Source: a virus. Taken from it: a stretch of 64,000 nucleotides of DNA. Below the pieces are notes generated by a model, which saw only the letters and a program-made list of their open reading frames with translations, was not told the DNA's origin and ran no database searches. This document shows, piece after piece, positions 2,779 through 61,285 of the stretch. How positions within the stretch are numbered: the stretch's first letter is position 1; every line of letters begins with the position of its first letter. The stretch spans positions 11,900 through 75,899 of IMG/VR virus record IMGVR_UViG_3300048919_000175; one strand, written 5' to 3'. Both the position numbers and the translations under genes were made by a program.

Positions 2779-3965
2779 TGGCCGAAGCCTGTTACAAAGA
2801 CCCTTATCTTCCGGCCAGCTATAAGGGCGTCCCGTTCGAAGCGCTGGAAGTCAATAGCCAGCACGGGCGGCGCGGCGCTGAGGGCGAGTTCCCGTTTGGC
2901 GAGGAGACTGCTTATGCTGATATGGGCAGATCAATACGTACTTATTCTATTAGCGGTCGTTTTGCTACTAACGATCATGTTCTCCGTGCGGCAGCTCTGA
3001 TCGCAGTTGTGGAGCTGCCCGGACCGGGTCCGCTTGTGCATCCTACGCGCGGCGTGATCATGGCGGCATGCAAGCAGCTCCGCGTGCGCGACAATCCCAC
3101 CGAGGAGCAGGGCGTCACTTATTTCGACATGGACATGGTCGAGGCAAACGTCTGGCCTAACGGTTTGAGCCTAGTCGGCTTCGTCTTGGGGCTCGCACTC
3201 GCTCCGCTTATCGAGGGACTAAATGACAGTTTCGATGAACAGTATCATCCGGAAGAGGCTACGTTCTATGACCGTGGCGCTGTCCTTGGGACTGCATCAA
3301 CCTCCGTTAATTCGATTTACACCGGCTATGTCCAAGCCGCCAAGAACGAGAATAACATCAAGGTTTATCGGTCATTCGCGGCGTTCCAGACCCTTTCTTC
3401 TGATCCTGGACTACTCGCGAAACCGAACACAATGAAGCAAGCCATGTCTGACGGGATGGCACTCATTGACAAGTATGGTACGAGCGTTCAGAAGCAGCAG
3501 CTATTCCGGGAAATTATCAACCAGAATGGCGGCTCCATCTTGGTTGGACGTACCGGCAGAGCCTCCGTTAACGCAGTGCAGAGCTACACTCGCCTGCTTG
3601 CGGCTGGCTACATGGCCAAGGCATTCCTTGAAGTCACGCCAGCCGACATGAACGAAGCCTTCACGCAATATGATCGCGTCGTCGCCGTGTTTGAGGAAGA
3701 ACTGAAGATCATTAACGAGGCATGCGACAGCAAGTTGTATGTCCGCCTTTCCCGGTTCTTTGAGGACCTGAAAGGCAAGTTGCTAAATCGCGCCTACAAC
3801 TCGCCGCCGCTGATCGCATTTCAGTTTGGCTCGGCAGTACCGTCAGTCGTCGCTGCGTACGAAATCTATACGGACGCCACACAGTTCCTCGATCTTGAGA
3901 AGAAGAACCCGTATGGCTTCCCGTGGATGATCGGACCAACCGTAATTGGAGCGCGACCGAATTGA
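2778..3965 (+). CDS. Mu gpN-like DNA circularization / tail tube initiator protein
   Basis: N-terminal ASYKGVPF...GRR...EFPF...DMGRSIRTYSISG and GPGPLVHPTRG motifs typical of the DNA_circ_N family. Confidence 0.8.
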   Translation: MAEACYKDPYLPASYKGVPFEALEVNSQHGRRGAEGEFPFGEETAYADMGRSIRTYSISGRFATNDHVLRAAALIAVVELPGPGPLVHPTRGVIMAACKQLRVRDNPTEEQGVTYFDMDMVEANVWPNGLSLVGFVLGLALAPLIEGLNDSFDEQYHPEEATFYDRGAVLGTASTSVNSIYTGYVQAAKNENNIKVYRSFAAFQTLSSDPGLLAKPNTMKQAMSDGMALIDKYGTSVQKQQLFREIINQNGGSILVGRTGRASVNAVQSYTRLLAAGYMAKAFLEVTPADMNEAFTQYDRVVAVFEEELKIINEACDSKLYVRLSRFFEDLKGKLLNRAYNSPPLIAFQFGSAVPSVVAAYEIYTDATQFLDLEKKNPYGFPWMIGPTVIGARPN

Positions 3966-23295: not shown

Positions 23296-24423
23296 TTATG
23301 CTCCTTGGTCCGGGGTGTATTGCAGATAAGCCTGTTGCCAGAAATGATTGGTGATCGGCCTGTGCTGCATATACCTGAGGATTTCAACGCGCTGCTCGGC
23401 CGATGGCTCAATGCCCTCTTGGCTGAGCCAGATCGGGCACGGCGGAGCCGGGTCCTTGCCTTCCTGACGCAACATGTTGTCGCGCCCTACCGGGCAGCTG
23501 ATGCAGGTGTCGCACGGTAGCGGCACGCCGACCTGTTCGTATTCCGTTTCGAACAGGGTGTTCAGCCGCTGGATGATCGGCGACCAGAGGTCCTCCTGCG
23601 CGATCCAGCAATTGCGCTTGCGCACCATGCTGAACGCAACCTCGCGGGTCATCATGAGTTGCATGTCGACCAAGGAGTTGATTGGCTTGCACATGTCATA
23701 ATAGTTGAGATAGCGGTGTAGCGTGTCGAACATCAGCACCGGCCGATGGCGCGTGACCTGCGCTCGCAACGCAATCGGAACTTGGGGCACGTCAACGATT
23801 ACGAAATGGCCTGAGAAGCCTCCGTTGCTCGCGTGCGTGTATTTCGGCAGGAGTTCCATTGCGCCGTAGTGATCAATCTTCAGCTTGCCGTATGGCGTAT
23901 AATCGATCGCTCGTTTCAACTCCCGGCTCATTTCCCAGAACGGGCTGCTCTCCAGCTGTGACATGCTCGACGCCAGACGATCCAATGCGGCACAGAACCG
24001 CATCAGGGTCCTTGCCGACAACTTGATCGTGAAGCCGGTAATGTAGCAGAGCGGCAAAAGCAGTCGGAAATGATCCTGCAATCCAGATAACCGGGCCTCC
24101 AGCATCTGCGCATGGGCCTTGATCACAAGTTGTTCGTCCTGCCAGAGCGGGTGCACCGGCCAATCGTTCAGGTTGTCCACCCGACTTGTCCTCGCCCATG
24201 CCACATGGTCCCTGATCGTGAAAAACATTTCCCGAATGATGATCGGGCAGCGGATTTCGAGAATGAAATCCTCGAGCTCGTTGACTGGCACATCGACCTT
24301 CAGCACGTCCATCAGGTCAATAATGTCTTCGTTGGGGCGCGAGTGGCCCCAAGCTTTCGCCGTAATGACGCCATCCGGTGACCGAATGACCTTCACACTG
24401 ATTGGTTCTCCGTAAACTGCCAT
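23296..24423 (-). CDS. Divergent ThyX-like flavin-dependent thymidylate synthase (tandem domains)
   Basis: IIIRE...RDHVAWARTSR, FRLLLPL, second RAQVTRHR, RKRNCW.AQ. Confidence 0.6.
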   Translation of the reverse strand: MAVYGEPISVKVIRSPDGVITAKAWGHSRPNEDIIDLMDVLKVDVPVNELEDFILEIRCPIIIREMFFTIRDHVAWARTSRVDNLNDWPVHPLWQDEQLVIKAHAQMLEARLSGLQDHFRLLLPLCYITGFTIKLSARTLMRFCAALDRLASSMSQLESSPFWEMSRELKRAIDYTPYGKLKIDHYGAMELLPKYTHASNGGFSGHFVIVDVPQVPIALRAQVTRHRPVLMFDTLHRYLNYYDMCKPINSLVDMQLMMTREVAFSMVRKRNCWIAQEDLWSPIIQRLNTLFETEYEQVGVPLPCDTCISCPVGRDNMLRQEGKDPAPPCPIWLSQEGIEPSAEQRVEILRYMQHRPITNHFWQQAYLQYTPDQGA

Positions 24424-30944: not shown

Positions 30945-31092
30945 TGATCGCTATCTTCAACAACTTGCCCGAGATGCTCCTTGGGATTGTCTATACCTAC
31001 ACGGTCTTCCGTGTGGGCCGCTGGTCAGCAAATCGCTGGCCTTCTAAGAAAACCGTAGCTTGACCGGTTAAGTCAAGGAATTCAACAGGAGA

Positions 31093-31572
31093 ATGAATAT
31101 GTTTGGTTTTGGTAAGAAGAAATCGATCCTTGGCGCGGCTGCATCGGCTGCCTTCAAGGAAATGAATGCCGGTCAGCAGGAGAACCTTGACTTCCTGGAA
31201 GCCGCTGCTTCTGGCACGGCACTGGTCGCTACGGTCGACGGCAATGCTGACAGCGCCGAGCGCAACAAGGCGATCTCGGTGATCACCAAGAACAAGATAC
31301 TCGGCCCGATCTTCAGCCAGCAGCAGGTCGAGGGCATGGTCAATGCCTACATCGACAAGGCTTCCGACAGCGCCGGTAAGAACGAACTGGTCAACGAGCT
31401 CAAGGACCTGAAGAACCACGAGAAGGGCGGCGAGTACGCCAAGCAGGTCTATCTGATGGCGAAGGACGTTGCCAATGCCGACGGCGGTATCGGCGACCGT
31501 GAGCAGAAGGCGCTGGACATCCTCGCCGGTATCCTCGGCGTCAATCCGCAGGACTTCGCGTTCGACTTCTGA
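31093..31572 (+). CDS. TerB-like (tellurite resistance family) protein
   Basis: LEAAASGTALVATVDG.ADSAER...VANADGGIG..EQ.AL..LA..LGV. Confidence 0.8.
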   Translation: MNMFGFGKKKSILGAAASAAFKEMNAGQQENLDFLEAAASGTALVATVDGNADSAERNKAISVITKNKILGPIFSQQQVEGMVNAYIDKASDSAGKNELVNELKDLKNHEKGGEYAKQVYLMAKDVANADGGIGDREQKALDILAGILGVNPQDFAFDF

Positions 31573-37108: not shown

Positions 37109-37137
37109 AAGGCCCGGTTAACAGCCGGGCTTTTCTT
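37109..37137 (+). terminator. Rho-independent terminator
   Basis: GCCCGG-ttaacag-CCGGGC-TTTT. Confidence 0.8.
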
Positions 37138-37143
37138 GGCTTG

Positions 37144-37162
37144 TAAAATACCTTGTATTTTA
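37144..37162 (+). promoter_or_regulatory. 19-bp operator element (copy 3, perfect inverted arms)
   Basis: TAAAATAC-CTT-GTATTTTA. Confidence 0.65.
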
Positions 37163-37548
37163 GTAGGCTGGCGGCAGTCCATAGGAGAGAAACTTGGAAA
37201 ACGAAAAATCGTATAAGATGCTCGGCGTATGCCAAGAGCTCAGCCCTACCGGCGCGGCGCAAGCCGGGTTCGCGCGGATGTACAACGCATTGCGGGCTGA
37301 CGGAATTTCAGAGGACGAGGTAATTAACCAGCTGATTTGTGCGCTGGCAGACGGAAGACTTTACGGCAATTGGCCGGGTGCAGCACAACCGGCCACGGGC
37401 AGCAGCAACAACTAGCCCGACGAGCCGTCCCCGCCCTAGAGACCGCCGTGGAGTGGCTTTAGGGCGGCTGGCTAGGGCAATATACCGGCCAGCCCTTGCC
37501 GCACGCCAGAGGGCAGCTCCGTGGCTTTCTGCACTGCATATGGAATTG

Positions 37549-39484: not shown

Positions 39485-40804
39485 CCCTTGCGCACGCTGA
39501 TAGGTCCATTAAAAGGATTATCAGTCAACAAGGAGAACGCAAATGACTGCAGAATTTCTCAAGCGCAAGGCGATGGCCACCATTGCGCTCATGCATCCGG
39601 AAAGCTTCCGCCCTGAACAGGTGGAGCAGGCGGCTTCGTGGGTTCTGGATAACGTGGCCACAAACGAAGACCTGCCGTTGCGCGATGCGGCGGCACGGTT
39701 CTTCGACGACAACGTGGAGCGATTATATGCGTAAGATGGCATGCTTTACGGTCCAGCTGGAGAACGGGCGCACATGGCGCTCCTGCCTCTATGCCGTCGA
39801 CCAAGCTGAGCGGGTGGCGCGACTGTTGCGCCACCTTGCGCCCGGCGCGATCATACAGTACGCGACGGAGGAATTCAACATTTTCAACACGGCTGGCGGG
39901 GTCATTGACGACTTTGGCCGCTGGCGCATGGAGGACGGAAATGCTCAGGGTCCATTGGGTCAAGACTGACGCAGAGGCTAGGGTTTGGGCGCGCGAAAAT
40001 GCCGGGCAGTTCATGTCGGCGTTGCGTCACCCCTTGGACAACCACGAGGTTATCCGTGGCATGAAAACCGGACGGTTTACCGCCGTTGCGGTATGCATGA
40101 ACATGGCGACCGGCTGGCGCATTGAGCCGAACGAAGCGGAAGTCACCTTTGCGGACGACTTCCCGGACGATGGCCCATGGCGCATTCAGGCGGCGGCGCG
40201 TGTACAGGTTCCAGTGCAGGGCGTCAGGCTTAACAAGGAGCTGATCCCAAGGCAGGTGGAGGCCCCCGACGATGGAGGCGAATAGGTGCAAACTTTGCAA
40301 CCGCATCTTGGCTACAGAAGAAAGCGCAGGTCTTGCGCGGGACTGTGGCGGCGATTGTTGGGGTTGCATCGGCGAAATTGAGGCAGATATGGGCTATGCC
40401 CCGAGCGTGGCCAAGTACAATCTTGAAGTTGAGCAGGGCTTGCGCCATGGCCCGAAGAAAGGTGTATATGATGGCGGGGAGTAGATGCATATACTTGAAC
40501 GTGCCGCCCGACGCCGACGGGGTCAAGCGTGTGCGTTCCAATTGGGCTTACAGGTGCGAATTCCCCGTTCCTGAATACCCATTGCCGGTAAGCGTTACGC
40601 GATACTACGATTTCAAGTGGCCTCCTATCAAGTCCCAAGTGATAGCGCCCGAGTGCCAGAAATGCCCGTGCTTCACTGCGAAGGCGGAACCCGTCGGGGA
40701 TTGGTTGCTGTGAAGCATTAACCATAACCCGAATAGGCTATTGCGCTTCGAAATGGATCGTGTACTGTGAACGCATAAATAAACAAGCGTTCAGGAGAAC
40801 GAAC

Positions 40805-41497
40805 ATGAGCAAGGTGAATGTTGAGAAGTTGAAGCGGAAGATCGCTGCCCTCCTTGCGAAGGCGGGCGGCACTGACAATCAGATTGAAGCGGAAGCATTT
40901 GCTGCCAAGGCGCAAGCATTGCTGACCGAGCATCAGCTGGAAATTGGCGACGTGGTCAAGACCGACCCGATCGAGCGGACCGTGATCTTTGTTGGCCCCA
41001 AAACCAAGAAGGACTGGCACGGCCTGCTGCCGAACGCGATCGCCAAATATTACGGCTGCAAGTGCGTTGCGTTCCACGAGCAGGGCATTATTGCTTACAC
41101 GGCGGTAGGCCGCGAGAGCGGTCGCGTCATGGCGGCGGAAATGTTCCCGTTCCTGCTGGAGCAGGTACGCCTGAAAGCGCTGGAATACCAGAAAGTTACG
41201 CTGTTCAGCCGCAAGCGTTGCATGAACGACATTGTGCATGCTTTCGTGTTGCGCCTTCAGACCCTGATCAAGGCTCAGGAGACCACGGCGGCGGCAACTG
41301 GCGGGCATAGCCGGGCGCTTGTGCTGGTAGACGAGGCCGAAGCGTGGATGAAGGAACACATTAACGACCTGACGCCCGGCAAACGGACCACGTTGCAAGT
41401 CAACGGGCTTTCGGAAAAGCTGGCGGGCGAAATTTCGCTGGCAGGCCAGATTACCGACGGCGACGACGGCAAGCCGCTGGCCTTGGAACACCATTAA
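40805..41497 (+). CDS. DUF2786-domain protein
   Basis: KIAALLAKA...EAEAFAAKAQALL..H. Confidence 0.75.
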   Translation: MSKVNVEKLKRKIAALLAKAGGTDNQIEAEAFAAKAQALLTEHQLEIGDVVKTDPIERTVIFVGPKTKKDWHGLLPNAIAKYYGCKCVAFHEQGIIAYTAVGRESGRVMAAEMFPFLLEQVRLKALEYQKVTLFSRKRCMNDIVHAFVLRLQTLIKAQETTAAATGGHSRALVLVDEAEAWMKEHINDLTPGKRTTLQVNGLSEKLAGEISLAGQITDGDDGKPLALEHH

Positions 41498-44422: not shown

Positions 44423-44577
44423 AGCCTATTGGGAGGAGGCCAGTCGCCGTGGAGCGCAAGTGGACCATAGCACGGCCAGCGCGCCGCGCAACAGGATTTG
44501 TTAACCATATTGGTGACTTGCCCTTGCAACCGGGCAGGTAATCAGTATTGTTGATTTCAGTCAACAAGGAGAACGTT

Positions 44578-44796: not shown

Positions 44797-46026
44797 TGGC
44801 AGTCCGCAAAGGCGACCACGTTTACGTGATGGACAAGGGCGCTCGCTATTATGTGACGCGCCAAGGCCGCGTGCACCTGCCGCGCTGCTATACGGATGTC
44901 ACGGCAAAGCTTACCGAACGGGAACGGTTGCGCATACGCTACCGAGCGATGAAGAAGTGGAGCAAAGCATGAACAGTCTGGCATTACTGAACAAGGCCCG
45001 GCAGTTGCGCCGGGCGACCGTTGTCGCGTTTGATTGCGACGGATGCATGGCCCATGACCACAAGCTGAAATGGATTGGCCATGTGGTCAGCGTCGGTCCG
45101 GGACTGGAAGGCGTACATGTGCGCGTCATCAAGGAGCCTGCACGCGGGCCGATGGACGCCCGGGACACCGACCTTGGGACAAAGCGGTTGGCAGTTGAGG
45201 ACACTTCCCTGCAATGGGTCGCGCCCGGCCTTTTCTTCTGGTATAGGTGACCGATGCGCAAATTCTTCGTGCGGCTGCTGGTAGCGGCTAACGTTTTCTC
45301 TGCAGCCGTGGCGGCGCTGCTTATAGCGCTGACGTACCTGCCATGAGTGGGCGTAAGTGGCGTTTGCGCAGTTCTCAGCGCTACCAAACATGGACCGGCT
45401 CGTGGGTCGTGACCGCCTACCATACCGGCGCGGTCGTGTTCCCTTGGGCGCTGGAGCTCAGCTGGAAGAACGAGAAGATTACCGGCTTCCGCACGCTTAA
45501 GGCTGCTCAGACCGAAGGCGCACGGCTGCTGGAAGAAAAGGAATGGGAAGGCGCTGGTCGTTAACCGCTTGTTAACAGATTGGCGCTATGGTGCGCTCAG
45601 TCAACAAGGAGCAACGCACATGGAAACGGTTATCGTAGTTTACACGGTCGTGGTCGCGCTGGTAGTCGGCGGCGGCATGTGGTTCACGCGCGGGATGAAG
45701 CTGTGAAGCTGGAAGATGTTAAGGACATAGACCTGCTACGGGCAGGGCTGGTTTCTATTGACGAGCTTGAGCATGATGGCGCGGTAATCGCTGCCTTCGA
45801 ATGCGGCTTGATCGCGCCCGTACACGATTGGTCCAAAACCCTTGGGGACTTGGCCGACGAGCCGCCTTACCAGTTCTGCAGGGATTGCGGGACCGTGCGT
45901 CGCAGCCCATGGCCGATGGACCCCAACCAACGGAAATTAAGCGGTCGTTAACCATACGCCGACAAGCCGGTTGCGCCTGTCGTGGAAATCAGTAGAGTGA
46001 TCTCAGGTTAAACGGAGAACACGGCA

Positions 46027-46221
46027 ATGAAGACTTACACCCTTGAAATTTCCTACCTGAACGGCGACATGGCCCGCAGCAGCCAGACCTGCAAGTACCT
46101 TGGCGTGCTGATAAACAACGCCGAGCGCAAGGTTGCGGAAGTTATGCAGTCTAACAGCAAAGCAGCGTTGAAGCGCGAGGCCGCGACCTTTGGCGATTTC
46201 GACCTGCTGGACAAGGCTTGA
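46027..46221 (+). CDS. Small early protein
   Basis: GGAG RBS after cassette promoter. Confidence 0.6.
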   Translation: MKTYTLEISYLNGDMARSSQTCKYLGVLINNAERKVAEVMQSNSKAALKREAATFGDFDLLDKA

Positions 46222-46329
46222 CGCCGACTATTAACCGGTCGTTAACCATAGCCGAACAGGCCCCAAGTTTGGGGCTTGCATGGCGCGTGGAAATCAGTAG
46301 AGTGAAGTCACCAACAAGGAGTGACGCAC

Positions 46330-46524
46330 ATGACCAAGTTTATCGTAGTTCTCATGTTCAAGAACGCCAAGCGCCCGGCTTACGATGCGGGCGTCTATCC
46401 GGCCGTGCACGCCAAGAAGTACGCCGACCGCTACGACAGCCGCGAGGCCGCTGAGCGCGTTGCCAACCGGTGGGAGCGCTCGTGGTTGCAGCCGCGCACG
46501 ACGATTGAAGAGGTAGCCGAGTAA
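46330..46524 (+). CDS. Small early protein
   Basis: AAGGAG RBS after cassette promoter. Confidence 0.6.
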   Translation: MTKFIVVLMFKNAKRPAYDAGVYPAVHAKKYADRYDSREAAERVANRWERSWLQPRTTIEEVAE

Positions 46525-46700
46525 TGGAAAAGGTTGTTGCCGCATTTGCCGCCAATCCGGCGCTTGAGACCGCCCTGAGAGTGCACGCGCACTTGGCAAA
46601 GCACCCTATGGCCGAATGCATGGCCACGGACGCTCAGCGGGCTTTGATTTACCGTGCGCGGCTGATCGCCGCTGGCCGAGACCCCAAGGAGGTTATGTAA

Positions 46701-46913
46701 ATGTTTAATTTTCGTAGCGCCAAGCATGGCGGCATCTGGTTCCTCTCGTTCGGACGCCTGAATATCTCGTTCAGCGTGACCAGCCGCGCCACCTATGAGC
46801 GCCGCCAAGCCGAGCAGCTGGAGGCCCGCATCGCGGCAATCATGGCGGCTGATCTGGCCGAGGCCCGACGCGTGGACCTGTTTGCGGCCGAGCTGCTGAA
46901 AGCCTGCCGTTAA
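46701..46913 (+). CDS. Small early protein
   Basis: AAGGAGG RBS. Confidence 0.55.
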   Translation: MFNFRSAKHGGIWFLSFGRLNISFSVTSRATYERRQAEQLEARIAAIMAADLAEARRVDLFAAELLKACR

Positions 46914-47030
46914 CTCGCCGTTAACTATAAGTGGATAAGCGGGTCTGGGAGGGGTTTACCTTCCCGGAGAAATCAGTATTGTGATCTCCATGAGCAACGG
47001 CGCTGAGGCGCAAACCTGATGGAGATTAAA

Positions 47031-47304: not shown

Positions 47305-47814
47305 CTAGAGAATAGAGCGGGCTTGCTTGGCTTGCAGCGCCACGACCTGATCATGGGTCATGGTAATGCGGCGCTGCGTGACCGTAAGCTTGCCTTCCGC
47401 GTCGTACGTCTCGTCCTCTTTGATGCGGTAGTAACCGCCATTACCGTCCTGATAAATGAAGCTCTCGCGCTCCTGCTTGAGCTGCGCTTGCCGTTCGGTA
47501 TTCTTGCGATTGAAATGTTCCCGCCGCGCTTGGTCAACTGAGCGCAGACCGGCCTTCCAGCCGCCGTATCCGCGCGCCGTGTAGTCTGCATCCACCATGC
47601 GGAAGTCAACCCGTATGGCCTCAAGGAAGGCCTCTACCTTGGCCTTGTCGGCGTTATGGTGGCGTGCCAGTAGCAGGAAATTCTTTTCCATTAGATCGAT
47701 CAGGGCGGTCGTTGCTGCCTTGGTGCGGTCGTATTGTGCTTGGATTTGTCCCATAAGCTCATCTGCCTCATGCGGCGGGTTCTGCCTATACGGGTGATAT
47801 GTTGTATTAACCAT
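47305..47814 (-). CDS. Hypothetical protein
   Basis: AGGAG RBS; coupled to the upstream ORF. Confidence 0.55.
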   Translation of the reverse strand: MVNTTYHPYRQNPPHEADELMGQIQAQYDRTKAATTALIDLMEKNFLLLARHHNADKAKVEAFLEAIRVDFRMVDADYTARGYGGWKAGLRSVDQARREHFNRKNTERQAQLKQERESFIYQDGNGGYYRIKEDETYDAEGKLTVTQRRITMTHDQVVALQAKQARSIL

Positions 47815-48110
47815 TACTTTCTCCTGTTACGTTCTCGTAGTTCTTGGTAGTAAGCATATCGCCCGGTCTGGTCGCGCTTGGGCTTTGGCGTGCCCTTAAT
47901 GCGCTTGTTGACCATGCTTACGGTATCCGCAACGCTATCACGAATTTCCACGTTCCACTTGCGCATCTGCTGGTAGCGCGGCCATACGTCGTCAGGCGCG
48001 CCGGTCACGGCTAGAAGGGCATGCCGGGCTGTTGCCGTCCGCCATGACTGGAGGGCATCCAGCACGTCTTGGTAGGCGTTTTCCATGGCATCAAAATCGT
48101 CTTGGCTCAC
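47814..48110 (-). CDS. Hypothetical protein
   Basis: GGGAG RBS, GTG start. Confidence 0.5.
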   Translation of the reverse strand: MSQDDFDAMENAYQDVLDALQSWRTATARHALLAVTGAPDDVWPRYQQMRKWNVEIRDSVADTVSMVNKRIKGTPKPKRDQTGRYAYYQELRERNRRK

Positions 48111-49010
48111 TGATTATCTCCCATGGCCCGTGGGCCTTTTGGTATGGTTTTGTGGCGAGTTCACATTGGACAGCTTGTATTTTGTGAGGCCGCTGGCAAA
48201 TTATTACAATATTAATAACCTAGTAGCAAGGCGGAAGACCATGGGCTAGTTGTAAGTCATTGCATTGATAATGGGCAAAGGTTGGGTTTGTAAGGAAAGT
48301 AAACCAAGGTGCATGGATGGCTGTTTTGCGACCTTGGCCCATTGGCCCCAACAAAAACAAGGAGTTGCGGAGCGAAATGTAGATCACAAAGCATTACCGT
48401 TTATATACTTGCTTTGTTATGAGGCTGTAAAATTTTTTTAGCCATTAGGAATTAATTATTATAAAAAGTAGTAGTTAAAATAGTAGTATAGGACAAACCA
48501 AGGTCGTGAGCGGTAATGGTTTGTACTTGCCGCACGCCCGGCATTTCCGAATTCTACTGTCGCGGCTGGCCAATATACGATTTTCCAGACCCGCTTAGAG
48601 AACTGCCTGTTTTGGGAATTTGGTTTAACCTTTCGTCGCTGAGGCCGGTAGGCTGGCCAATACTTGGGCGGCACCCGCACCTCTCCCTCTCATTCTCGGC
48701 ATTTAGACGACCGTCCTTTTGTACATACTGACTAAAACATGTACTTAGTACACTTTTGCCCTGCACCATGGGCCTAGCGCCCTGCACCTTGCCAGCCTAG
48801 ACATGCGCACACTGCCACAGAGACAGTCAAGGAGCGCAATGGGCCATGGCCCTAGTACCATGCACCCGCCAGCGTGCTAACGCGCTGTACGGCCTGCTCC
48901 GTGGCAAACAAACATTCAAGGAACGCTATGTAGTTCCATAATGCATGTTATGCAACAACAGCAAAAGCTAATATAACCCCTGCCGCTGGCCCTCGGCACC
49001 CTAGACATGC

Positions 49011-49026
49011 TTAACAGATCGTTAAC
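49011..49026 (+). promoter_or_regulatory. CtrA box
   Basis: TTAA-CAGATCG-TTAAC. Confidence 0.65.
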
Positions 49027-49220
49027 GCATACAATTTAATTAAAATGCCACCAAATCGATCTACTCCTAGCGACGATCTAGTGCCCCGCTGCGTCGCGTC
49101 TCCGTGTCTTTTAAATTCCACCAGAATTCTTTTCAACGAAAGGTTGTACGTTTTAAAACCATGCCGGTTGGGAATTGGCCATGGACGATTTGCAGAAAAC
49201 AGTTTTCCAATTTCCATGGT

Positions 49221-49258
49221 AAAAACACCTTGTATTTTAGCCAGTCCTCCCTTATACC
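49221..49258 (+). promoter_or_regulatory. Operator copy 4 + sigma70-like promoter upstream of the Y-RNA-like gene
   Basis: AAAAACACCTTGTATTTTA; TTGTAT-N17-TATACC. Confidence 0.6.
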
Positions 49259-49370
49259 TACCCCATGCGCCATGGGCGATCGGAGAAGGCACCGGGCCGA
49301 CAGCCCGTGCGATGGTATCCTTTCGTTTGTCAAACTTGGCGCTAACTCGATGGCCCGCCGAATAAAGCGA

Positions 49371-49493
49371 TAGCCATCACATGACGAAGTGCGATATGCG
49401 AAGGTCGGCGGTTCGAGCCCGCCCATGCCCGGAAGGCCGTGTAATCTCAGCTGGTAGAGGGTCACATACCGCACGTGCCGTCTGCAGCGGCTA
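49371..49493 (+). ncRNA. YrlA/Y-RNA-like circularly permuted tRNA mimic
   Basis: GACGAAG motif, long stem, AGGTC, T-arm GGCGG-TTCGAGC-CCGCC, acceptor stem closed by GGAA, D-arm TCTC-AGCTGGTA-GAGG. Confidence 0.8.
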
Positions 49494-49501
49494 GTCTCTC
49501 A

Positions 49502-49533
49502 AGGCCCATGGCAACCGGAGCCATGGGCCTTTT
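49502..49533 (+). terminator. Rho-independent terminator of the Y-RNA-like gene
   Basis: AGGCCCATGGC-N7-GCCATGGGCCT-TTT. Confidence 0.8.
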
Positions 49534-49561
49534 GCATTTACAGAACGATCAGGAGCAAACA

Positions 49562-49948
49562 ATGAGCGATAACTACCAAGCAATCTACGACGCAGTGCGA
49601 TCGAGGTTCAGCAATGTCGACGCCAACCAGATCATTCGCGAGCATGTCTCCATGCTGACCAACTCTGCCGGTCATGCCCTCGACATGGCCCGAGCCAATT
49701 TCGATAGCATGCTAGGGGAGCATCAGCGCCCTTCTGTGCTTTATCGGCCAACGCTGACGCAAGACGGCGATCACTGGCTCGCGATCTATGGTGATTTGCA
49801 ATCCGGCGTCGTTGGGGCCGGTCGCACTCCCGCTCAAGCCATGCAGGCGTTCGATCAAGCTTGGCACAAGCCCGCCGTGGCACCACCCAAGCTAAAGCCG
49901 AACAACTGGCGCGCTCCGCCTCCGCCGAAAGAAAGTTTCATACCATGA
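49562..49948 (+). CDS. Hypothetical protein
   Basis: AGGAG RBS; GVVGAGRTPAQAMQAFD. Confidence 0.65.
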   Translation: MSDNYQAIYDAVRSRFSNVDANQIIREHVSMLTNSAGHALDMARANFDSMLGEHQRPSVLYRPTLTQDGDHWLAIYGDLQSGVVGAGRTPAQAMQAFDQAWHKPAVAPPKLKPNNWRAPPPPKESFIP

Positions 49949-50503
49949 ACATGGACTATAACACACTAGGCGAGCTCGGCGCGGCAGGCTTCATGATTGG
50001 AGTGTTCCTGTTGTTCCTCCTATTCGCAATTTTCAAGTACGGACCTTAATTATGCCGATGAACGAAGACGAGCTTTACACTCTACTGGAAAAGTACATCC
50101 GCTGGGTCTATCTCTGCGAAGGCACAACATTCATCCACGACCACGGCTCAGAAGAATACTTCTCCAAGGAAGAGCTTGAACAGCTACTTCATTTCTACAA
50201 GAAGCTCAGGGAAGAGTAGCATGGACGCATTTACGATCATAACGCTTATAATCGGCTTGCTCTTGGACTGCATCATCATTGCCGCCTATTTAAAGTCGAA
50301 GCTGTGAAGGACATCCAATGCCCCACTTCACATTCTGGATTATCTTTCTGCCGATGCTGGCGTTTTGGCTCGGGTGTCTCAAGGCCCGTCGCTCAAGTCG
50401 TCGGAGTGAGGATTGCGAGGACTAAGTCATGACACCGCTTAACCCCTGCCAGTTTCGTGAGGTTAAAGCTTGTCAAATAGCTGCGTGGCAGGTAGCATTC
50501 TGA

Positions 50504-50600
50504 GGCACACTGAAATGTTATCCCCTTCCTCCCGGAAGTTTGCATATTCATTGTTCTCCTGAATTAGCCCGCTGTCGTACCCCGGCAGCGGGTCTTTTAT
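50504..50600 (+). ncRNA. Candidate anti-Shine-Dalgarno small RNA (~95 nt)
   Basis: TTGTCA-N17-TAGCAT promoter (50470-50498), CU-rich loops, terminator 50568-50598. Confidence 0.6.
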
Positions 50601-50607
50601 TTTCCAC

Positions 50608-50636
50608 TTGCCTTTGGTAAAATACCTTGTAGTTTA
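50608..50636 (+). promoter_or_regulatory. Promoter/operator copy 5 upstream of the large ncRNA
   Basis: TTGCCT-N16-TAGTTT overlapped by TAAAATACCTTGTAGTTTA. Confidence 0.55.
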
Positions 50637-50640
50637 GGTT

Positions 50641-51185
50641 CCACTCGCTGCACTGCCTTTGGGGTTCACGGATCCCTCAGTCTTGCAGCCGCGCAGGTGG
50701 TGCAGCGAGCCAGTCGGCAGGGCTGGGAAGTTCAGGCGTGACCCGCGCCTCAGTTTAAAACCGCAAGGTCTGAAAGATGTTGACATCAGGGTGGAGATTT
50801 ACGAGGGCCTTCGGGCCGCTGTGACATGGTCTTACGGCTTGAGCCATGTCCGGGAAAAGAGCGAGCCGTCCCGCGACCGTGACTATCGGTGTTAGGAAGC
50901 GGGTTAGTTTCAGAGATGCGACGTAGGGCTACCAAACCATACCGAGCATAGTAGCAGGTCCGGTTCATTTTACAGGATGGACCGGACCTGTTCGTTTCAG
51001 CGGCGGATTTCCACTCTCCGCCGCGTGGTTGGTATGGCCTCGTCAGCTGGACCAACTGCCCCACCCTCCGTGCCGCATGGAGGGAAGTCGCCGTCCGGGC
51101 TACCGCCTTTGTCCGGGAAAGAAGGTTGGGTCCGATCCTCGTCGGGCGAGAGCGCTGAGCGACCAGCACCCAACCGCGCTCCACT
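50641..51185 (+). ncRNA. Large (~540 nt) highly structured RNA of unassigned family
   Basis: More than 12 helices incl. long-range pairings, GCAA and UUCG tetraloops, G-U-containing stems; no credible ORF. Confidence 0.7.
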
Positions 51186-51201
51186 ATTGATGAGGGACAA
51201 T

Positions 51202-54335: not shown

Positions 54336-55985
54336 ATGGTAGCGATTGTCGGATGCAGACCGGTTTGTGAAGAGATCGAGCCGGTATCGCTACCGGGCAA
54401 CGACATGCCAGCCCCTCCCGGACCGTCCGGTAGCGGCAATAACATTCCCGACTTCGACCCTTCACAGAGCTATGACTTCCCAGAAGTCGTCGTGCACAAT
54501 GGCGTCATTTACCGAGCCTTGGGACCGATCGCCCCTGGACCATTTGACCCGGCCGATTGGGAAGCGCTGGACAATTCCGGCGGCGGCGCAACAGTCGTCA
54601 CAGAAGATACAGCGACCGCCACCATCGGCGGCGACGGCTCGGCCGGAGACCCACTGACCGTTGACGTCAATGTTCAGGCATTGACCAAGTGGGGCGCAGG
54701 GCAGCTCATCCACGTTGATGCAATTCGCGGTGTCGATGCGCTCACCCAAGATGCATCGATCTTCATGCCGTATCAGACGGTCGGCTTTGCGCTTGCGCAG
54801 GCGGAGACTTCTGACGTCATCCTGCTCGCGCCCGGCACCTATGTAGAAAACGTCGCATTTGTATCAGACGTCGTCGTGCAGGGCTTCGGCCCGAACGATG
54901 CCAACCCTGTGATCATTCGCGGTCATCACACGATCGGCGACGGCATTGCTCGCGTGCGGCTCAAGGACCTACAGCTAGTCGGCACGGCTGGAGCTCCGGC
55001 GCTGGTTGTCGCGAACTCGGCTGGATCGCATACGCTCGACAACGTCTCCATCAGCCATGCAGACGGACCAACGGCCACGGCTGTTCAGTTTACCGGCAAC
55101 AATCAGAGCTTCATGACGCTCAACGATGGTTCCATTGCCGGTGTCTTATCTCTGCAAGACCCGCTACAGGTCTCAGCGTTCGCGCTGATCTTGCGCGGTG
55201 GCTCAGAGCCAACGACAGTTCTGTTCAACAGCGCCCCGGTGCAGCTCTCTATCATCGATCACATCCGGCTCGGCAAGATCACGCACGGCGCTGGTCTGCT
55301 GTTGATCGACAGCATTGGCTATATCATCCAGAATGGCGGCGTCTCGCTCGTCTCGACCGCGAGCGCGGCCAATGGCGCACTGTTCATGAAGAACGTGACC
55401 ACTATCCAGCCGAACGGCAGCTATGGGGCGATCCAGAAGACCGGAACCGCCCCATATATGATGCTTGGGGTCAAGTCCGATCCGCTGGCTGCGGACTTTG
55501 CCGGGCTTAACTTGCTAGGAGATAATGCCAAGCATGTCCATGCTCAGTATCAGCCGGTCAACTACTTCCCGCTATCGGCTTCCGTGCGCGATCATTTAAA
55601 GGCGATCGATGAAGCGCTTCCGTTCAGCGCTGACGGGCGCACAGTCGTACATGAGATCGTGGTTTCGCGCCCCGGTCCAGTTCTGGAAGATCAAATAATC
55701 CTGGATTATGTTGCGTCGAAGCCGATCACGCTTAAAGCTAGTCTTCCCGACATTCAGTACAAGTTCCGTGGTACGGCAGGTCAATCGGTCACGCTCAACC
55801 TGTTCAGGAATGATGTTGCCATTGGTGACATTACGATCGACACAACTTCGATCAACATCAATTTCGCGGTTGATGTTGAGTTCCTCGTAGGAGACGTTTT
55901 CACTGTTTCCGCACTAGAGGATGCAGCATTTTCTAACGTAGCTTTGACGCTTCAGGGCTTGCGTCAACTGGACTTTGTAGCGTAG
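54336..55985 (+). CDS. Virion fibre protein (CBM-like N-terminus, pectin-lyase-like beta-helix)
   Basis: VVHNGVIYRA...W; PYQTV..AL..A...DVI.LAPGTYVE. Confidence 0.6.
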   Translation: MVAIVGCRPVCEEIEPVSLPGNDMPAPPGPSGSGNNIPDFDPSQSYDFPEVVVHNGVIYRALGPIAPGPFDPADWEALDNSGGGATVVTEDTATATIGGDGSAGDPLTVDVNVQALTKWGAGQLIHVDAIRGVDALTQDASIFMPYQTVGFALAQAETSDVILLAPGTYVENVAFVSDVVVQGFGPNDANPVIIRGHHTIGDGIARVRLKDLQLVGTAGAPALVVANSAGSHTLDNVSISHADGPTATAVQFTGNNQSFMTLNDGSIAGVLSLQDPLQVSAFALILRGGSEPTTVLFNSAPVQLSIIDHIRLGKITHGAGLLLIDSIGYIIQNGGVSLVSTASAANGALFMKNVTTIQPNGSYGAIQKTGTAPYMMLGVKSDPLAADFAGLNLLGDNAKHVHAQYQPVNYFPLSASVRDHLKAIDEALPFSADGRTVVHEIVVSRPGPVLEDQIILDYVASKPITLKASLPDIQYKFRGTAGQSVTLNLFRNDVAIGDITIDTTSININFAVDVEFLVGDVFTVSALEDAAFSNVALTLQGLRQLDFVA

Positions 55986-56556: not shown

Positions 56557-57975
56557 ATGATTTCAGGTAATCCACGTTTGGCAGTATGGACTGCCAGTGA
56601 CAATACGCTCCGCATCTTCGAGCTCGCTAATGACGAGAGCTCGTTCCAGCAGGTTGGCGTCGCCACGATGACGCATTCCGGCTCTGCACCGGATAAACCA
56701 TTCCTTGCCTTCATCTCCGAAGGCACGCGGGTCGCGGGCTTCCACATCGTCAATCTTTCTTCGTTCGGCGGCTCCATCTCTTCGATGTGGGACCTCAGCG
56801 GCGTACTGATCCAGGACGCGAACGTACCGACCCTGAACAATGGTATCTTCAAGGGCGCTATCACTCCCGATAGCAATCTGTGGATCATCATGAATACGTT
56901 CAACACCATTCCCAATTCGATGAAGGCGGCTGAGCTCGGCTGGCAGAACCAGCAGAACATTGTCGGCAATGCGGATTTCTCCGTGGTCGCTGCCTCCGAA
57001 AAGAATTTGTTCTTGGGGCTGGCTGCTAACCAGTCAATGATCTATCATGCCGACAGCGTCAACCCGACCTATGGCACGCCGATCTTTACGCCTTCTGACG
57101 TCCTTGGCGACATGGCGATTAGACCAGATGTTGCCGCGTTCACGCCGAATGCACTGTGGCTGATCGCTGCTGAGGACACGACCATTGAAGTCTGGTCCGT
57201 TATTGACGAGACCTATGATATAGCCAGCCGCATCAATGAGCCCGGCGTCGGGAACGCAGTTGCGATTTCCATTCGATACGACAGCAAGTGGATTGCAATC
57301 AGCTTTAATAATGCGGGCGTCTATACGACTTGCGTCTACGAGCGCGTTGGCGGCTACCTGAAGAAGCGCCAAACGATCAACACTTTCGGCAAGACCCTGC
57401 AATGGACGGCTGATGGTCGCTATCTGCTCGACAGCGGGCAGAAAAAGGCCCGTTTGCGTGCCGAAGACGGCTCTTTCAGCAATGCCGACGCCATCATGAC
57501 CAACCTTCCGGCAACGATCATTGTTGACGCTGTTTCCGACCATGTGGCGCAGCCTGTACCCTTTGCCAACCTGTACAGCGCGGCTATACAGGCGTTCTCT
57601 TTGCAGACAGCTGACACAGCGGCCATGAAGCTTGCGCTTCTGGACAATACTTACGTCTTTGATGCGCAAGCGGGCTCGGCGGCGACCATCCTCGCGGCAG
57701 TTGAGGTTGACGGGAACAACTGGCCTGCCGGTGGCGTGCTGATGAGCAACGTCGCATATGCTGCCGGGCCGGGTGATCTAGCATCTATTACGTTCGACCC
57801 GGTCGAACAGATCGTGACGCAAGGCGGACTGACATATCAGTCGATCTTGATTTACGACGAAACCAATGACACGCCTCTGGTCTACGTCACATTTGGCGAA
57901 GATATTGTCGTGCCTTCCAATGTCACGGTGACCATCGCGAGCGCAGACGGCACCCTCCTGAAGTTCGTTACGTGA
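56557..57975 (+). CDS. Beta-propeller-containing virion protein
   Basis: WD40-like blades (AFTPNA.WL, WTADGRYL) + C-terminal MKLALL...ITFD domain. Confidence 0.55.
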   Translation: MISGNPRLAVWTASDNTLRIFELANDESSFQQVGVATMTHSGSAPDKPFLAFISEGTRVAGFHIVNLSSFGGSISSMWDLSGVLIQDANVPTLNNGIFKGAITPDSNLWIIMNTFNTIPNSMKAAELGWQNQQNIVGNADFSVVAASEKNLFLGLAANQSMIYHADSVNPTYGTPIFTPSDVLGDMAIRPDVAAFTPNALWLIAAEDTTIEVWSVIDETYDIASRINEPGVGNAVAISIRYDSKWIAISFNNAGVYTTCVYERVGGYLKKRQTINTFGKTLQWTADGRYLLDSGQKKARLRAEDGSFSNADAIMTNLPATIIVDAVSDHVAQPVPFANLYSAAIQAFSLQTADTAAMKLALLDNTYVFDAQAGSAATILAAVEVDGNNWPAGGVLMSNVAYAAGPGDLASITFDPVEQIVTQGGLTYQSILIYDETNDTPLVYVTFGEDIVVPSNVTVTIASADGTLLKFVT

Positions 57976-58408: not shown

Positions 58409-61285
58409 ATGGCCCTCCCATACATCGAGCGGACAGTTGCAGCGGCAGTAAGCGGCCTCAACTTTGTTGGCGCTGGTATCTCTGATAGCGAACAATGGGT
58501 CGCACTTGGTGCGAACTCCGGTACGAGCTACATGCTCAAGCGTAGCGCTGCGGGCAACTATGATACTGCTGTTGCGATTTCTGGTGCTACCGGGCAATGC
58601 CTTGATATCACATTTGCAAACGATATCAAGGCATACGGATCGATCGGCTCAAACTTCTATCGTTTTGATTACACTGCACCGGGCGGCGTCGACACGTGGA
58701 CGGCCACGGCGATACCTGTCCTGGGCGGACAGGCGGTACGCGGTGTCAGCATATCTCCTGACGGGCAGCACATTGCGTGTGCGTTCCTGACTGCGTTTGT
58801 AGTTTACGATATCGCTTCAAATTCGATCATCAAAAACGTAGCCTGGACCAGCGGCGAAGACGTCAAGTATTCGCCCGATGGCAAGTATGTCGCTGTTGTA
58901 GACCGATTTGCTGGCGTCAGCGTCTATCAGCGCGCCGGGGCTGTTTACACGCTCATGACAATCGTTGGTGGATCGACGCCGACGAAAGGAAGCTGGCAAC
59001 TCAGCTGGCATCGCAATAGTAAGCGGTTCGTGGCTTCCGCCAATTCGAGCGGCACTGGCGCATATATCTACGCGCTGACAAGTTCTACGGATTGGACACC
59101 AACTACACTTATCTCTACCCCGGCGTCTGTCGCCGCTCTCTACACTTATTCTGGTGCTGATCTCGTAAACTTTTCGCCGGTCAGCACAGCCGCGCCGCAC
59201 GTTTTTCAGGACGACGTCACGTCCGTAACCGAACGACTTGATTTTTCGGTACTAGCTCAGCCGACTGGCGGATGCGGCGCAGGGGCCTCCCCCAAAACGG
59301 GTCTCGGTCGGACGGTTGTTCTGGCCGGTGTAACGAGTGGTGCGCGTATCTTCACGGCTCCTCTTGCGTTCAAGCAAAGAACTGTCACTGCTTCCCTGCC
59401 AGCGATCGAGTATTATGGCGTTGCTGTTTCTCCGGACGGTAAGTACGTTGCTTGCTGCCCGTCGACCGCAACCACGACCGTTAAAATTTTGGTCCGCAAC
59501 GACACGACCGGCGATTATGACAGCATGCAGACCGTTACCGGACTGCCGCTGGCGTCTAGTGCGATCGTTGACGCAGTGTTCGGTCCTAACTCCGACACTC
59601 TCTATGTGCCTGTCAATGACAAAGTTCATAGATGCACGCTCGTTGGTGGCGTCTGGACTTACGAAAAACAGTTTGCGGTCACACATGGCGGAGCAAACGG
59701 CATTGATATCGACAAGGATGAGCGTATCCTTTTGATCGGTGCCGCGAGCGGTGGGGCCACACTATGGAACGTGGTCAGCGACACGCTTGTCCAGAACATC
59801 GCTATCGCCGACACGATCCAGGACGCCAAATTTTCTTCTGATGGTCGCTACGCCGCCCTCGCCTGCCAGAGCCTCGGTCTGCGCGTTTACGATCGCGGGA
59901 CGCCACTTACCGACGTTTTCACCAGTATGCCGGTCACTGGTGGCGGCGCTGCCGTGGCCAATTGGGCTGTTCAGTTCAATGAAGCTGGCAATCGTATTAT
60001 TTCCGGCTCGATCTTCTCTGGTAATGCTTCCAGCGGCTTTACGCTCGATCCTACAGGTACGCCGACTTGGGTCGGTCAGACGTTGCAGGCTGCTCATAAC
60101 TCAGTCGGCGCTACTTACATCCTCGGCAAATATCCGTTCACGACCTCTAATAGTTCGGTAGTGCCTGACAATTGGGCCGACCCTAACTTCGTAGCTGACA
60201 AGAACAGTTTGCCCGCGATGGCGACGCACGCCTCCCGCGCCGGTCGCGGCACCGGCAATGGCTCTGGTGTCTTCGCCTTTGCCAGAACTTCCGGTAGCGG
60301 CGGCGGCGTGGTCATTTATACGGTTGACGTACCTGCTCCGGGCACTCTCGATCTTGCCGCAAGCTTCACTATGCCGATAATCGGTATGCTGGCAGAGCTT
60401 GGGGCCGAAGCCTCTATCGACGGCGAGTTCACTATCGCATTGATTGGCATGGACGGCATTCTTGCAAATGCTAACGGCGACATTGTCCCTGCTCTGCCGC
60501 AAGTGTTCCGAGCTCCGGCTATCGCGCTAGAAGCGGAAATGCTTACGGAAGAAACCGAATTCTTGCCGCTAGCACAGATCGAGTTCACCTATGGTGCGTA
60601 CTCGATGTTGCTCAATGCCGGTCTGTACGAGAATGCAGAAATCGAGTTCACCTATGGTGCGTACTCGATGGAAATCTTGGAAGGCATCAAGGCAGAGATT
60701 GAATTCACTTATGGCGCTTATGCGCTAGAAGCCGAAATGGATAGCCGCAACGCAGCTCATATTGCATGGAGCTATGGCGCATATTCCATGGAGATTGAAG
60801 GCTTCCAGCCGATCGGCATGATGGTCAATTTCACCTATGGCGCATACTCGATCGAAATTGACGCCGACGCACAGTTCGGTGCCGCCCTGACGTTTGGTTA
60901 CGGCGCATACGGCATGGAGCTCGACGCCGACGTTTCTATGCCAGCAAATATCGAGTTTACATATGGTGCCTATGATATCGTTATGACGGGCACTTCGCCT
61001 GTTGCTACAGATATCGAGTTTACCTATGGTGCTTACGACATGTCTGCTTCCATGTCGCAACCGAATTCGATCATCTTCTCCTACGGTGCCTATTCGATGG
61101 CGGTCGTAGCTTCTACGCCCGTTGTCCTTGACGCTCGCTTGACGTATGGTCACTACGGCATGGCGCTCACTGGCACCATGATCAAGGAAGCTGAGATTAA
61201 GTTCAGCTACGGCGCTTACGGAATGGAAGTCGTAGGTGAAGTCGTATCGAATAATGCGCTTACATTTATGATCATTCAGCCGTGA
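58409..61285 (+). CDS. Double WD40 beta-propeller protein with 11 C-terminal YGAY repeats (fibre?)
   Basis: SPDG..VA blades; (I)EF(T/S)YGAY.M repeats at 60578-61225. Confidence 0.7.
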   Translation: MALPYIERTVAAAVSGLNFVGAGISDSEQWVALGANSGTSYMLKRSAAGNYDTAVAISGATGQCLDITFANDIKAYGSIGSNFYRFDYTAPGGVDTWTATAIPVLGGQAVRGVSISPDGQHIACAFLTAFVVYDIASNSIIKNVAWTSGEDVKYSPDGKYVAVVDRFAGVSVYQRAGAVYTLMTIVGGSTPTKGSWQLSWHRNSKRFVASANSSGTGAYIYALTSSTDWTPTTLISTPASVAALYTYSGADLVNFSPVSTAAPHVFQDDVTSVTERLDFSVLAQPTGGCGAGASPKTGLGRTVVLAGVTSGARIFTAPLAFKQRTVTASLPAIEYYGVAVSPDGKYVACCPSTATTTVKILVRNDTTGDYDSMQTVTGLPLASSAIVDAVFGPNSDTLYVPVNDKVHRCTLVGGVWTYEKQFAVTHGGANGIDIDKDERILLIGAASGGATLWNVVSDTLVQNIAIADTIQDAKFSSDGRYAALACQSLGLRVYDRGTPLTDVFTSMPVTGGGAAVANWAVQFNEAGNRIISGSIFSGNASSGFTLDPTGTPTWVGQTLQAAHNSVGATYILGKYPFTTSNSSVVPDNWADPNFVADKNSLPAMATHASRAGRGTGNGSGVFAFARTSGSGGGVVIYTVDVPAPGTLDLAASFTMPIIGMLAELGAEASIDGEFTIALIGMDGILANANGDIVPALPQVFRAPAIALEAEMLTEETEFLPLAQIEFTYGAYSMLLNAGLYENAEIEFTYGAYSMEILEGIKAEIEFTYGAYALEAEMDSRNAAHIAWSYGAYSMEIEGFQPIGMMVNFTYGAYSIEIDADAQFGAALTFGYGAYGMELDADVSMPANIEFTYGAYDIVMTGTSPVATDIEFTYGAYDMSASMSQPNSIIFSYGAYSMAVVASTPVVLDARLTYGHYGMALTGTMIKEAEIKFSYGAYGMEVVGEVVSNNALTFMIIQP

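Follow-up and report, generated by a model that had tools for sequence, protein, structure and literature searches.

The window analysed here, 64,000 nucleotides of the virus record IMGVR_UViG_3300048919_000175 (its bases 11900-75899), carries at 50470-50602 on the + strand a real, partly conserved, non-coding promoter-and-terminator unit that probably yields a small RNA (sRNA). Judged from its sequence, the unit is likely to be an independent small non-coding RNA gene of ~95 nt, and a role of its RNA in blocking ribosome binding sites (RBSs) is plausible. An anti-Shine-Dalgarno (anti-SD) sRNA had been proposed at this place in an initial annotation. What stands of that proposal is the non-coding unit itself, which has a syntenic homologue in a distantly related phage genome (G001), and a CU-rich linker that mirrors the consensus RBS of the phage, whereas the targets then named are not conserved in the relative. 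The whole statement, RBS occlusion included, is tentative.

A promoter-and-terminator unit at a gene boundary

The unit lies exactly at the boundary between an arm of many small genes (+ strand, 26.8-50.4 kb of the window) and the + strand genes that begin again at ~51.2 kb and continue to the window end. The ~3 kb around it (48110-51200) hold little coding sequence. Its elements and the promoter that follows are, in order:

50432-50451, + strand: upstream box GACACCGCTTAACCCCTGCC, 54-73 nt 5' of the predicted transcript start
50470-50498, + strand: promoter-like site P1, TTGTCA-N17-TAGCAT, a 9/12 match to the consensus
50505-50602, + strand: predicted small RNA of ~95 nt, its start placed from the -10 hexamer and its end in the U-tract
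50523-50538, + strand: CU-rich motif 1, CCUUCCUCCC, forming a 5-bp hairpin CUUCC/GGAAG with loop UCCC
50543-50566, + strand: linker CAUAUUCAUUGUUCUCCUGAAUUA, the reverse complement of the SD sequence CAGGAGAAC plus AUG
50567-50603, + strand: intrinsic terminator with 11-bp stem and loop UACCC, then CUUUUAUUUU
50609-50637, + strand: promoter P2, TTGCCT-N16-TAGTTT, its spacer containing a 21-nt palindrome, leading to the gene at ~51190/51202

Promoter, CU-rich hairpin and terminator had all been described in the initial annotation and were found again: the TTGTCA-N17-TAGCAT site is present, the hairpin CTTCC-TCCC-GGAAG spans 50525-50538, and the terminator stem (50567-50593) contains 8 GC among its 11 bp and is followed by CTTTTATTTT. 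A second hairpin, ATTCA/TGAAT, is absent from the minimum-energy fold, in which the partner of CAUAUUCAUUG is ACACUGAAAUG and UUCUCCUGAAUUA stays unpaired. The fold of 99 nt has a free energy of -33.3 kcal/mol (z = -4.4 versus shuffles), and the 5' domain alone gives z = -2.4. The seed of the linker is predicted to be UUCUCCUG. The mean unpaired probability of UUCUCCUGAAUUA is 0.71 in the short RNA versus 0.34 in a read-through transcript, where the linker is predicted to pair with the upstream AUUCUGAGG. Since the linker is open in a transcript from the predicted start and paired in the read-through form, these predictions favour a defined 5' end.

Downstream of 26 kb, two + strand terminators with a stem of at least 10 bp were found, the one at 50567-50593 and another at 49501-49531. 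As far as sequence evidence goes, the unit has both an own promoter and an intrinsic terminator with a U-tail, as is expected for the generic class of trans-acting sRNAs. A perfect 7-nt inverted repeat, CCTGCCA/TGGCAGG (50445-50451 and 50485-50491), flanks the -35 region of P1.

Conservation in related phages

The relative G001 was found by scanning IMG/VR for the 21-nt palindrome of P2 followed by a tblastn screen, which left one true relative. It is a complete genome of 75,275 nt with terminal repeats, and 55 of the 97 window proteins have homologues in it, at 30-76% identity. At the syntenic place the same elements stand in the same order (box, P1, RNA, terminator, palindrome promoter):

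G001, syntenic to 50432-50451: upstream box CCGCTTAACCgCTGCC
G001, P1: TTGTCA-N17-TATGGT, with the spacer blocks AGCTGCG and TGGCA in common with the window
G001, RNA: ~85 nt, poor in open reading frames (ORFs), with UCCUCCC in the linker and CUCUCCUG in the terminator loop (0.75 unpaired)
G001, terminator: in the same position but unrelated in sequence; long U-tract
G001, next promoter: TTGCCC-N16-TATTTA, with a palindrome in the spacer

Globally aligned, the two loci score 110 against 59 +/- 7 for shuffles (z = 7.2). The upstream box is 87% identical over 23 nt, with CCGCTTAACCsCTGCC common to both, and may be a regulator site or a TTAAC half-site. CTGCC and TGGCA, which are parts of the inverted repeat around P1, are among the conserved blocks. 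No homologue was found in the G001 region for the 128-aa gene (49562), which heads the operon immediately upstream of the unit in the window, or for the small ORFs that follow it. Since the upstream genes differ in G001, the unit does not merely form the end of one given operon. Alignments of the two RNAs with MAFFT proved unreliable.

A third relative, G002/L139, whose small terminase subunit is 63% identical, has the palindrome promoter and a long ORF-poor stretch. The pattern of box plus promoter occurs in IMG/VR in G001 only, and blastn of the locus against phage records and plasmids returned nothing or terminator-like scraps only. When IMG/VR was scanned for the pattern of the CU motifs, three matches came up, all inside coding regions and rejected as chance. 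Relatives of the 128-aa gene (L002, L003, L007 and L008) were discarded as not syntenic and without a mirror partner. The 151-aa gene downstream has one relative in Logan, and further scans with it gave no matches; a metagenome scan with the small terminase subunit yielded distant matches only, of at most 51% identity.

Complementarity of the linker to gene starts

Within the linker, CATATTCATTGTTCTCCTGAATTA is the reverse complement of the commonest RBS words of the phage, AGGAGAA, GGAGAAC and CAGGAGA, together with the start codon. The 62-nt 5' domain of the RNA has at least eight contiguous complementary bases to 10 of the 97 predicted gene starts, a count that is reached by 0.18% of random 62-mers (P 0.0018) and by 1% of antisense copies of real gene starts. 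The linker (50543-50566) supplies nine of these ten matches, and the UCCUCCC hairpin shows no excess of gene-start pairing over chance. Eight of the ten fall on RBSs (words of the GGAGAA type) whose genes lie within 31-47.8 kb, one of these genes (47305-47814) being on the - strand. Of the other two, one covers the region of the start codon of the 49562 gene and one is an unrelated word at 23296-24396. By prediction, the RNA has both the accessible seed and the beyond-chance complementarity to gene starts that characterise the sRNA class.

Complementarity was assessed by k-mer and sliding-duplex tests. When the linker was slid over all 32,000 windows on both strands, the top three non-self duplexes were gene starts:

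40787-40810, + strand: RBS and start of the DUF2786/DUF7168 gene (gene 40805, Pfam), rank 1, -21.9 kcal/mol, 11-nt perfect match
31083-31102, + strand: RBS and start of the TerB-like gene (gene 31099, Pfam TerB), rank 2, -20.5 kcal/mol, 8 + 8 bp with a 3-nt bulge
49549-49568, + strand: RBS and start of the 128-aa gene (TCAGGAG-CA-AACAATGA; gene 49562), rank 3, -19.7 kcal/mol, 7 + 8 bp with a 2-nt bulge

The individual complementarities put forward earlier are real, namely that of CATATTCA/TTG/TTCTCCTG (50543-61) with CAGGAGAATGAATATG (31086-31101), the perfect complementarity of 11 nt to 40790-40800, and the complementarity to the AGGAGAAC RBS at 39531 and 44567. The gene-start cassettes TCAGTCAACAAGGAGAACG are themselves repeated in the window, as two identical copies and one variant (39521-39539, 44557-44575 and 45597-45615). 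Taken alone, the count of complementary starts does not tell whether a sequence is a gene-start-mirroring RNA or the antisense of an RBS, and this ambiguity makes tests of coding and the comparison with relatives necessary.

Absence of a coding signal

Three frames overlap the unit:

50429-50503, + strand: 24-codon mini-ORF, SD-like GAGGA-7-ATG, codon score -0.14
50515-50562, + strand: 15-codon mini-ORF, SD-like GAGG-9-ATG, codon score -0.37
50551 to 50393, - strand: 52-codon antisense ORF MNMQTSG..., whose RBS and ATG mirror the linker, codon score -0.10

Scores are per codon, and coding windows of the same length score 0.26 +/- 0.11 to 0.19. The earlier statement that ~95 nt hold no credible + strand ORF needs qualification, as the two + strand mini-ORFs with SD-like sites do exist, but both score as non-coding. 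The antisense ORF lies 3.2 standard deviations below the coding windows. The guanine-cytosine content at third codon positions (GC3) is 0.44 in the 24-codon and 0.56 in the 15-codon mini-ORF, and 0.57 in the antisense ORF versus 0.64-0.69 in neighbouring genes. No homologue of the antisense ORF was found and it is not among the called proteins of the protein collection; its matches in the full HMMER search were rejected as a repeat artefact, the score being a sum over ten repeats of a single weak similarity of 36 residues within a giant repeat protein. None of the three frames is conserved in G001, where the antisense RBS and ATG are not kept either. Translation of the antisense ORF, which the initial annotation had named as one observation that would overturn the sRNA, is therefore unlikely on account of its non-coding score, the lack of a credible homologue and the loss of its RBS and ATG in the relative.

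Genome context and probable host

The virus record is complete, with 75.9 kb and 127-bp terminal repeats, and originates from root metagenomes. DNA contigs of four sequencing runs are identical to the window, with zero variants. A replication arm on the - strand, which includes a DnaE-type polymerase, occupies ~12.9-26.5 kb of the window, and among the + strand genes beyond the unit is the small terminase subunit at 53096. Three large tail-fibre-like genes (54336-55985, 56557-57975 and 58409-61285) have relatives in the phage database only in Rhizobium/Agrobacterium phages (7-7-1, Milano, RHEph12 and others), where the annotation given is tail fibre or virion protein, with WD40-like repeats. 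The first of the three, 54336-55985, is not a large terminase subunit. Because the tail-fibre-like genes match only phages of Rhizobium and Agrobacterium, a host among the Rhizobiaceae is suggested, and the phage is probably one of rhizobia.

The 21-nt palindrome of P2, GTAAAATACCTTGTATTTTAG, starts 24 nt after the terminator of the unit and is present five times in the window (26746-66, 30248-68, 37143-63, 49220-40 and 50617-37). All copies have the central CTT on the + strand, and three of the five lie 44-50 nt before start codons. The palindromes sit in the spacers of promoter-like sites, and related ones are found in the equivalent promoters of two relatives (L052 at about 3560-3590 on the minus strand, and L139 at 2841-2880). 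The P2-like promoter of L139 reads TTGCCA-N18-TATTTA, next to that of G001 given above. The palindrome is probably the operator of a phage regulator.

Between P2 and the next gene, which probably starts at 51190 or 51202, ~550 nt (50644-51189) are GC-rich and without a convincing ORF; this stretch has an equivalent in both relatives and no match in Rfam. Conserved non-coding patches in distant relatives were observed at 48922-48956 (91% over 35 nt with G001), 49053-49172 (77.5% over 120 nt with L139 2679-2796) and 50735-50750 (16/16 nt with G001), so the ORF-poor island of 48110-51200 holds further conserved non-coding elements.

Upstream of the unit, the terminator at 49501-49531 ends only 30 nt 5' of the start of the 128-aa gene, which leaves no room for a promoter between them. 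The operon must therefore be expressed either by read-through of this terminator or from within the preceding non-coding stretch. A TTAA-N7-TTAAC box is found three times with a common 25-nt downstream element (45936-46989), and by its sequence the small-gene arm looks assembled from duplicated modules of promoter and RBS. ORF starts encoding Met-Asn-Met (ATGAAYATG) occur three times, at 49945, 31093 and 50551 (minus strand), and such common start strings may reflect recombination at gene boundaries.

Discussion

In the mechanism that we propose, the host-type promoter P1, with the conserved box upstream of it, would initiate transcription near 50505 and the intrinsic terminator would end the transcript at ~50600, just ahead of P2. 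The RNA that would accumulate is predicted to have three parts, namely an imperfect 5' hairpin in which UCCUCCC lies, the CU-rich linker with UUCUCCUGAAUUA open, and the hairpin of the terminator, and the linker extended into CAUAUUCAUUG would act as the mirror of the commonest phage RBS and start codon. In the cell, the RNA would pair with the start regions of some of the genes that make up the + strand arm of 26.8-50.4 kb, putatively those of the DUF2786, TerB-like and 128-aa genes and of the AGGAGAAC cassettes, and possibly with host mRNAs too, and pairing would block the entry of ribosomes. The direction of this effect and its timing, including the 'early shut-off' of the initial annotation, we infer. 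Translational repression by the RNA is plausible from the sequence, though unproven, and possible rather than likely. The most elaborate form of the idea is a dedicated anti-RBS RNA, tuned to CAGGAGAAC plus AUG, which on accumulating would shut off a set of messages of the small-gene arm together, including the adjoining operon; this we consider doubtful. Such an RNA might serve as the early-to-late translational switch of a rhizobial phage, and host messages carrying the same signature might also be hit.

Several observations weigh against an anti-SD role or against an independent RNA gene as such. None of the listed sequencing runs was an RNA run carrying the sequence of the locus. Promoter matches of the grade of P1 (9/12) occur at 14 per 20 kb versus 12.2 in shuffles, which is chance frequency. 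In G002/L139 the unit of P1, RNA and terminator is absent, and no translocated copy was detected on a scan of G002. The transcribed part is poorly conserved, the strongest conservation being that of the promoter and flanks. Both heptamers, UCCUCCC and UCUCCUG, are found in the G001 RNA, but 17% of dinucleotide shuffles match as well (P 0.17). Moreover, the G001 RNA does not mirror the RBS consensus of G001, AAGGAGC, and its complementarity to the gene starts of that genome is only weakly above chance (8/108, P 0.04). The named targets are not kept there: TerB and the 128-aa gene are missing, and the orthologue of the DUF2786 gene has a different start region. In the RNA of the window, CAUAUUCAUUG accounts for one half of the long duplexes, and this half is predicted to lie hidden within the 5' hairpin; any antisense of a good RBS would match many gene starts. 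With its conservation in G001, however, P1 ranks as a conserved promoter in spite of the chance-level match, and this speaks in favour of a non-coding unit that stands on its own.

The poor conservation of the transcribed part and the chance-level grade of P1 also speak for an alternative in which the unit would be an insulating terminator with an inert spacer, which ends transcription of the small-gene operon (49562-50425) and shields P2. The 140 nt before the terminator would then form an untranslated 3' tail without a part in regulation, and the mirrored RBS would be a relic or an accident. The position of the P2 palindrome 24 nt past the terminator fits with this, as do the same order of terminator and palindrome at 37110-37163 and the predicted pairing of the linker with AUUCUGAGG in the read-through transcript. 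At 37093, however, the terminator follows the stop codon after ~15 nt and not 140, and for 7.9 kb of intergenic DNA a 9-mer mirroring the consensus RBS is improbable (roughly 0.03). A promoter would not be expected to persist in a passive tail, and the retention of the -35 hexamer, the spacer blocks, N17 and the upstream box in G001, in spite of different upstream genes, thus counts against an insulator, which we regard as unlikely. A further alternative is a terminated late leader in the manner of lambda pR'-6S RNA-tR': P1 would be constantly active, a phage antiterminator would permit read-through into the structural genes, and the RNA would be a by-product. The unit indeed stands at the junction toward the small terminase subunit (53096) and the tail-fibre-like genes, and what G001 keeps is promoter, terminator and position more than the RNA body. 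Expression of the 49562 operon likewise requires read-through of the terminator at 49501-31, so that control by read-through seems to be in use. Yet the conserved P2 directly past the terminator implies that the downstream unit does not depend on P1, G002 has P2 without the P1 unit, and the search of the neighbours (Pfam, PHROGs) brought up no recognisable antiterminator, Q-like or otherwise. Neither the nearby antiterminator nor the lack of a separate downstream promoter that mark the lambda type is found here, and this explanation is rather improbable.

Explanations in which the sequence is translated fare worse. The mirrored RBS could be a real - strand RBS (CAGGAGAAC-AATG) of the 52-codon gene, perhaps with the RNA as its cis-antisense in the style of P22 sar/ant. 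This RBS and its ATG are of canonical phage type and the frame is open over all 52 codons, - strand genes with the same RBS type lie 2.6 kb away (47305-48110), the palindrome at 50617-37 is in principle usable by a leftward promoter, and the single + strand TCTCCTG of L139 is the antisense of a genuine - strand gene start. Against this stand the non-coding codon score and low GC3, the lack of a homologue other than the HMMER artefact, the lack of any - strand promoter at 9/12, the common orientation of all five palindromes, and the observation that in G001, where the module is retained, CAGGAGAG is not followed by a start codon and a similar peptide is missing. No translated opposite-strand gene under the RNA, as in P22 sar/ant, is thus seen, and the explanation is very unlikely. 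Least likely of all, to the point of being barely credible, is coding on the + strand, by which two micro-proteins of 24 and 15 aa would belong to the small-protein operon, with leader-peptide attenuation as a variant. The stop/start tiling of 49945-50562 is tight, the SD-like sites are at correct distances and the terminator lies 4 nt past the last stop codon, but the codon scores (-0.14 and -0.37 vs 0.26) and GC3 are low, the peptides lack the hydrophobic character of the small ORFs next to them, and neither frame is kept in G001.

If the sRNA is real and works as proposed, the signature of its own gene starts would serve the phage as an address by which translation is controlled collectively. 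Should the RNA be no more than a terminated leader, the unit still marks a regulatory junction of this phage group, composed of the upstream box, P1, the terminator and the palindrome promoter P2.

Most of what is known of phage-encoded small RNAs comes from enterobacterial prophages, next to a few classic cases (c4, sar and oop), and we know of no small RNA of a rhizobial phage. No Rfam family reached its gathering threshold in the whole window. The Cuckoo/ar14 family (RF02344) scored 14.7 bits (E 3.3) in the window and 16.5 bits (E 0.82) in G001 against a threshold of 58.8, and anti-hemB (RF02837) scored 16.3 bits (E 0.47) against 49.5; these weak matches reflect the CCUCCC motif and the terminator. 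A search for ar14 in the phage's own genome gave no match. The resemblance to AbcR/cuckoo sRNAs suggested by the initial annotation is consequently one of style and not of membership.

Cuckoo RNAs are defined by two to four adjacent hairpins with helices of at least 6 bp and CCUCCUCCC in each loop (PMC4615179), an arrangement that the candidate RNA does not have. Its likeness to the Cuckoo/alpha-r14/CcsR sRNAs, including NfeR1 (RF02344; PMC4615179), consists in a short terminator-ended RNA, a probable host group within the Alphaproteobacteria, and a CU-rich anti-SD motif, its CUUCCUCCC being 8/9 of CCUCCUCCC. It differs in that this single partial motif is half inside a 5-bp stem, a second motif, UCUCCUG, is in the linker, the terminator loop is UACCC, and the RNA is phage-borne. 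On sequence grounds the candidate is not a member of the cuckoo/ar14 family, but by analogy it may work similarly.

The lambda pR'-6S RNA-tR' late leader comprises a promoter and a short terminated transcript at the entry to the late genes. The unit resembles it in position and in the stronger conservation of promoter and terminator than of the RNA body, and departs from it in the second conserved promoter after the terminator and in the lack of a recognised antiterminator gene. The c4 RNA of P1/P7 arises by processing of the very transcript that also contains its target, and it regulates the antirepressor in immunity. As a phage-encoded RNA that pairs with the RBS region of an mRNA of the phage itself and blocks expression, c4 (PMC12197685) is close to the proposed function, whereas the candidate has its own promoter, several dispersed gene starts as predicted partners and no sequence similarity to c4. 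In the icaR mRNA of Staphylococcus aureus, a CU-rich anti-SD motif before the terminator in the untranslated stretch at the 3' end (3'-UTR) pairs with the SD sequence of the first gene in the 5'-UTR of the same transcript (PMC3868564), and the equivalent pairing here would be that of 50548-62 with 49549-66. The icaR pairing is in cis within one mRNA; in the present case the partner gene is missing from G001, where the RNA unit is kept, and the linker is predicted to be locally paired in the read-through form. By analogy, the nearest functional precedents for the candidate RNA would be the rhizobial anti-SD sRNAs and the c4 RNA of P1/P7, together with the icaR 3'-UTR for a variant acting in cis.

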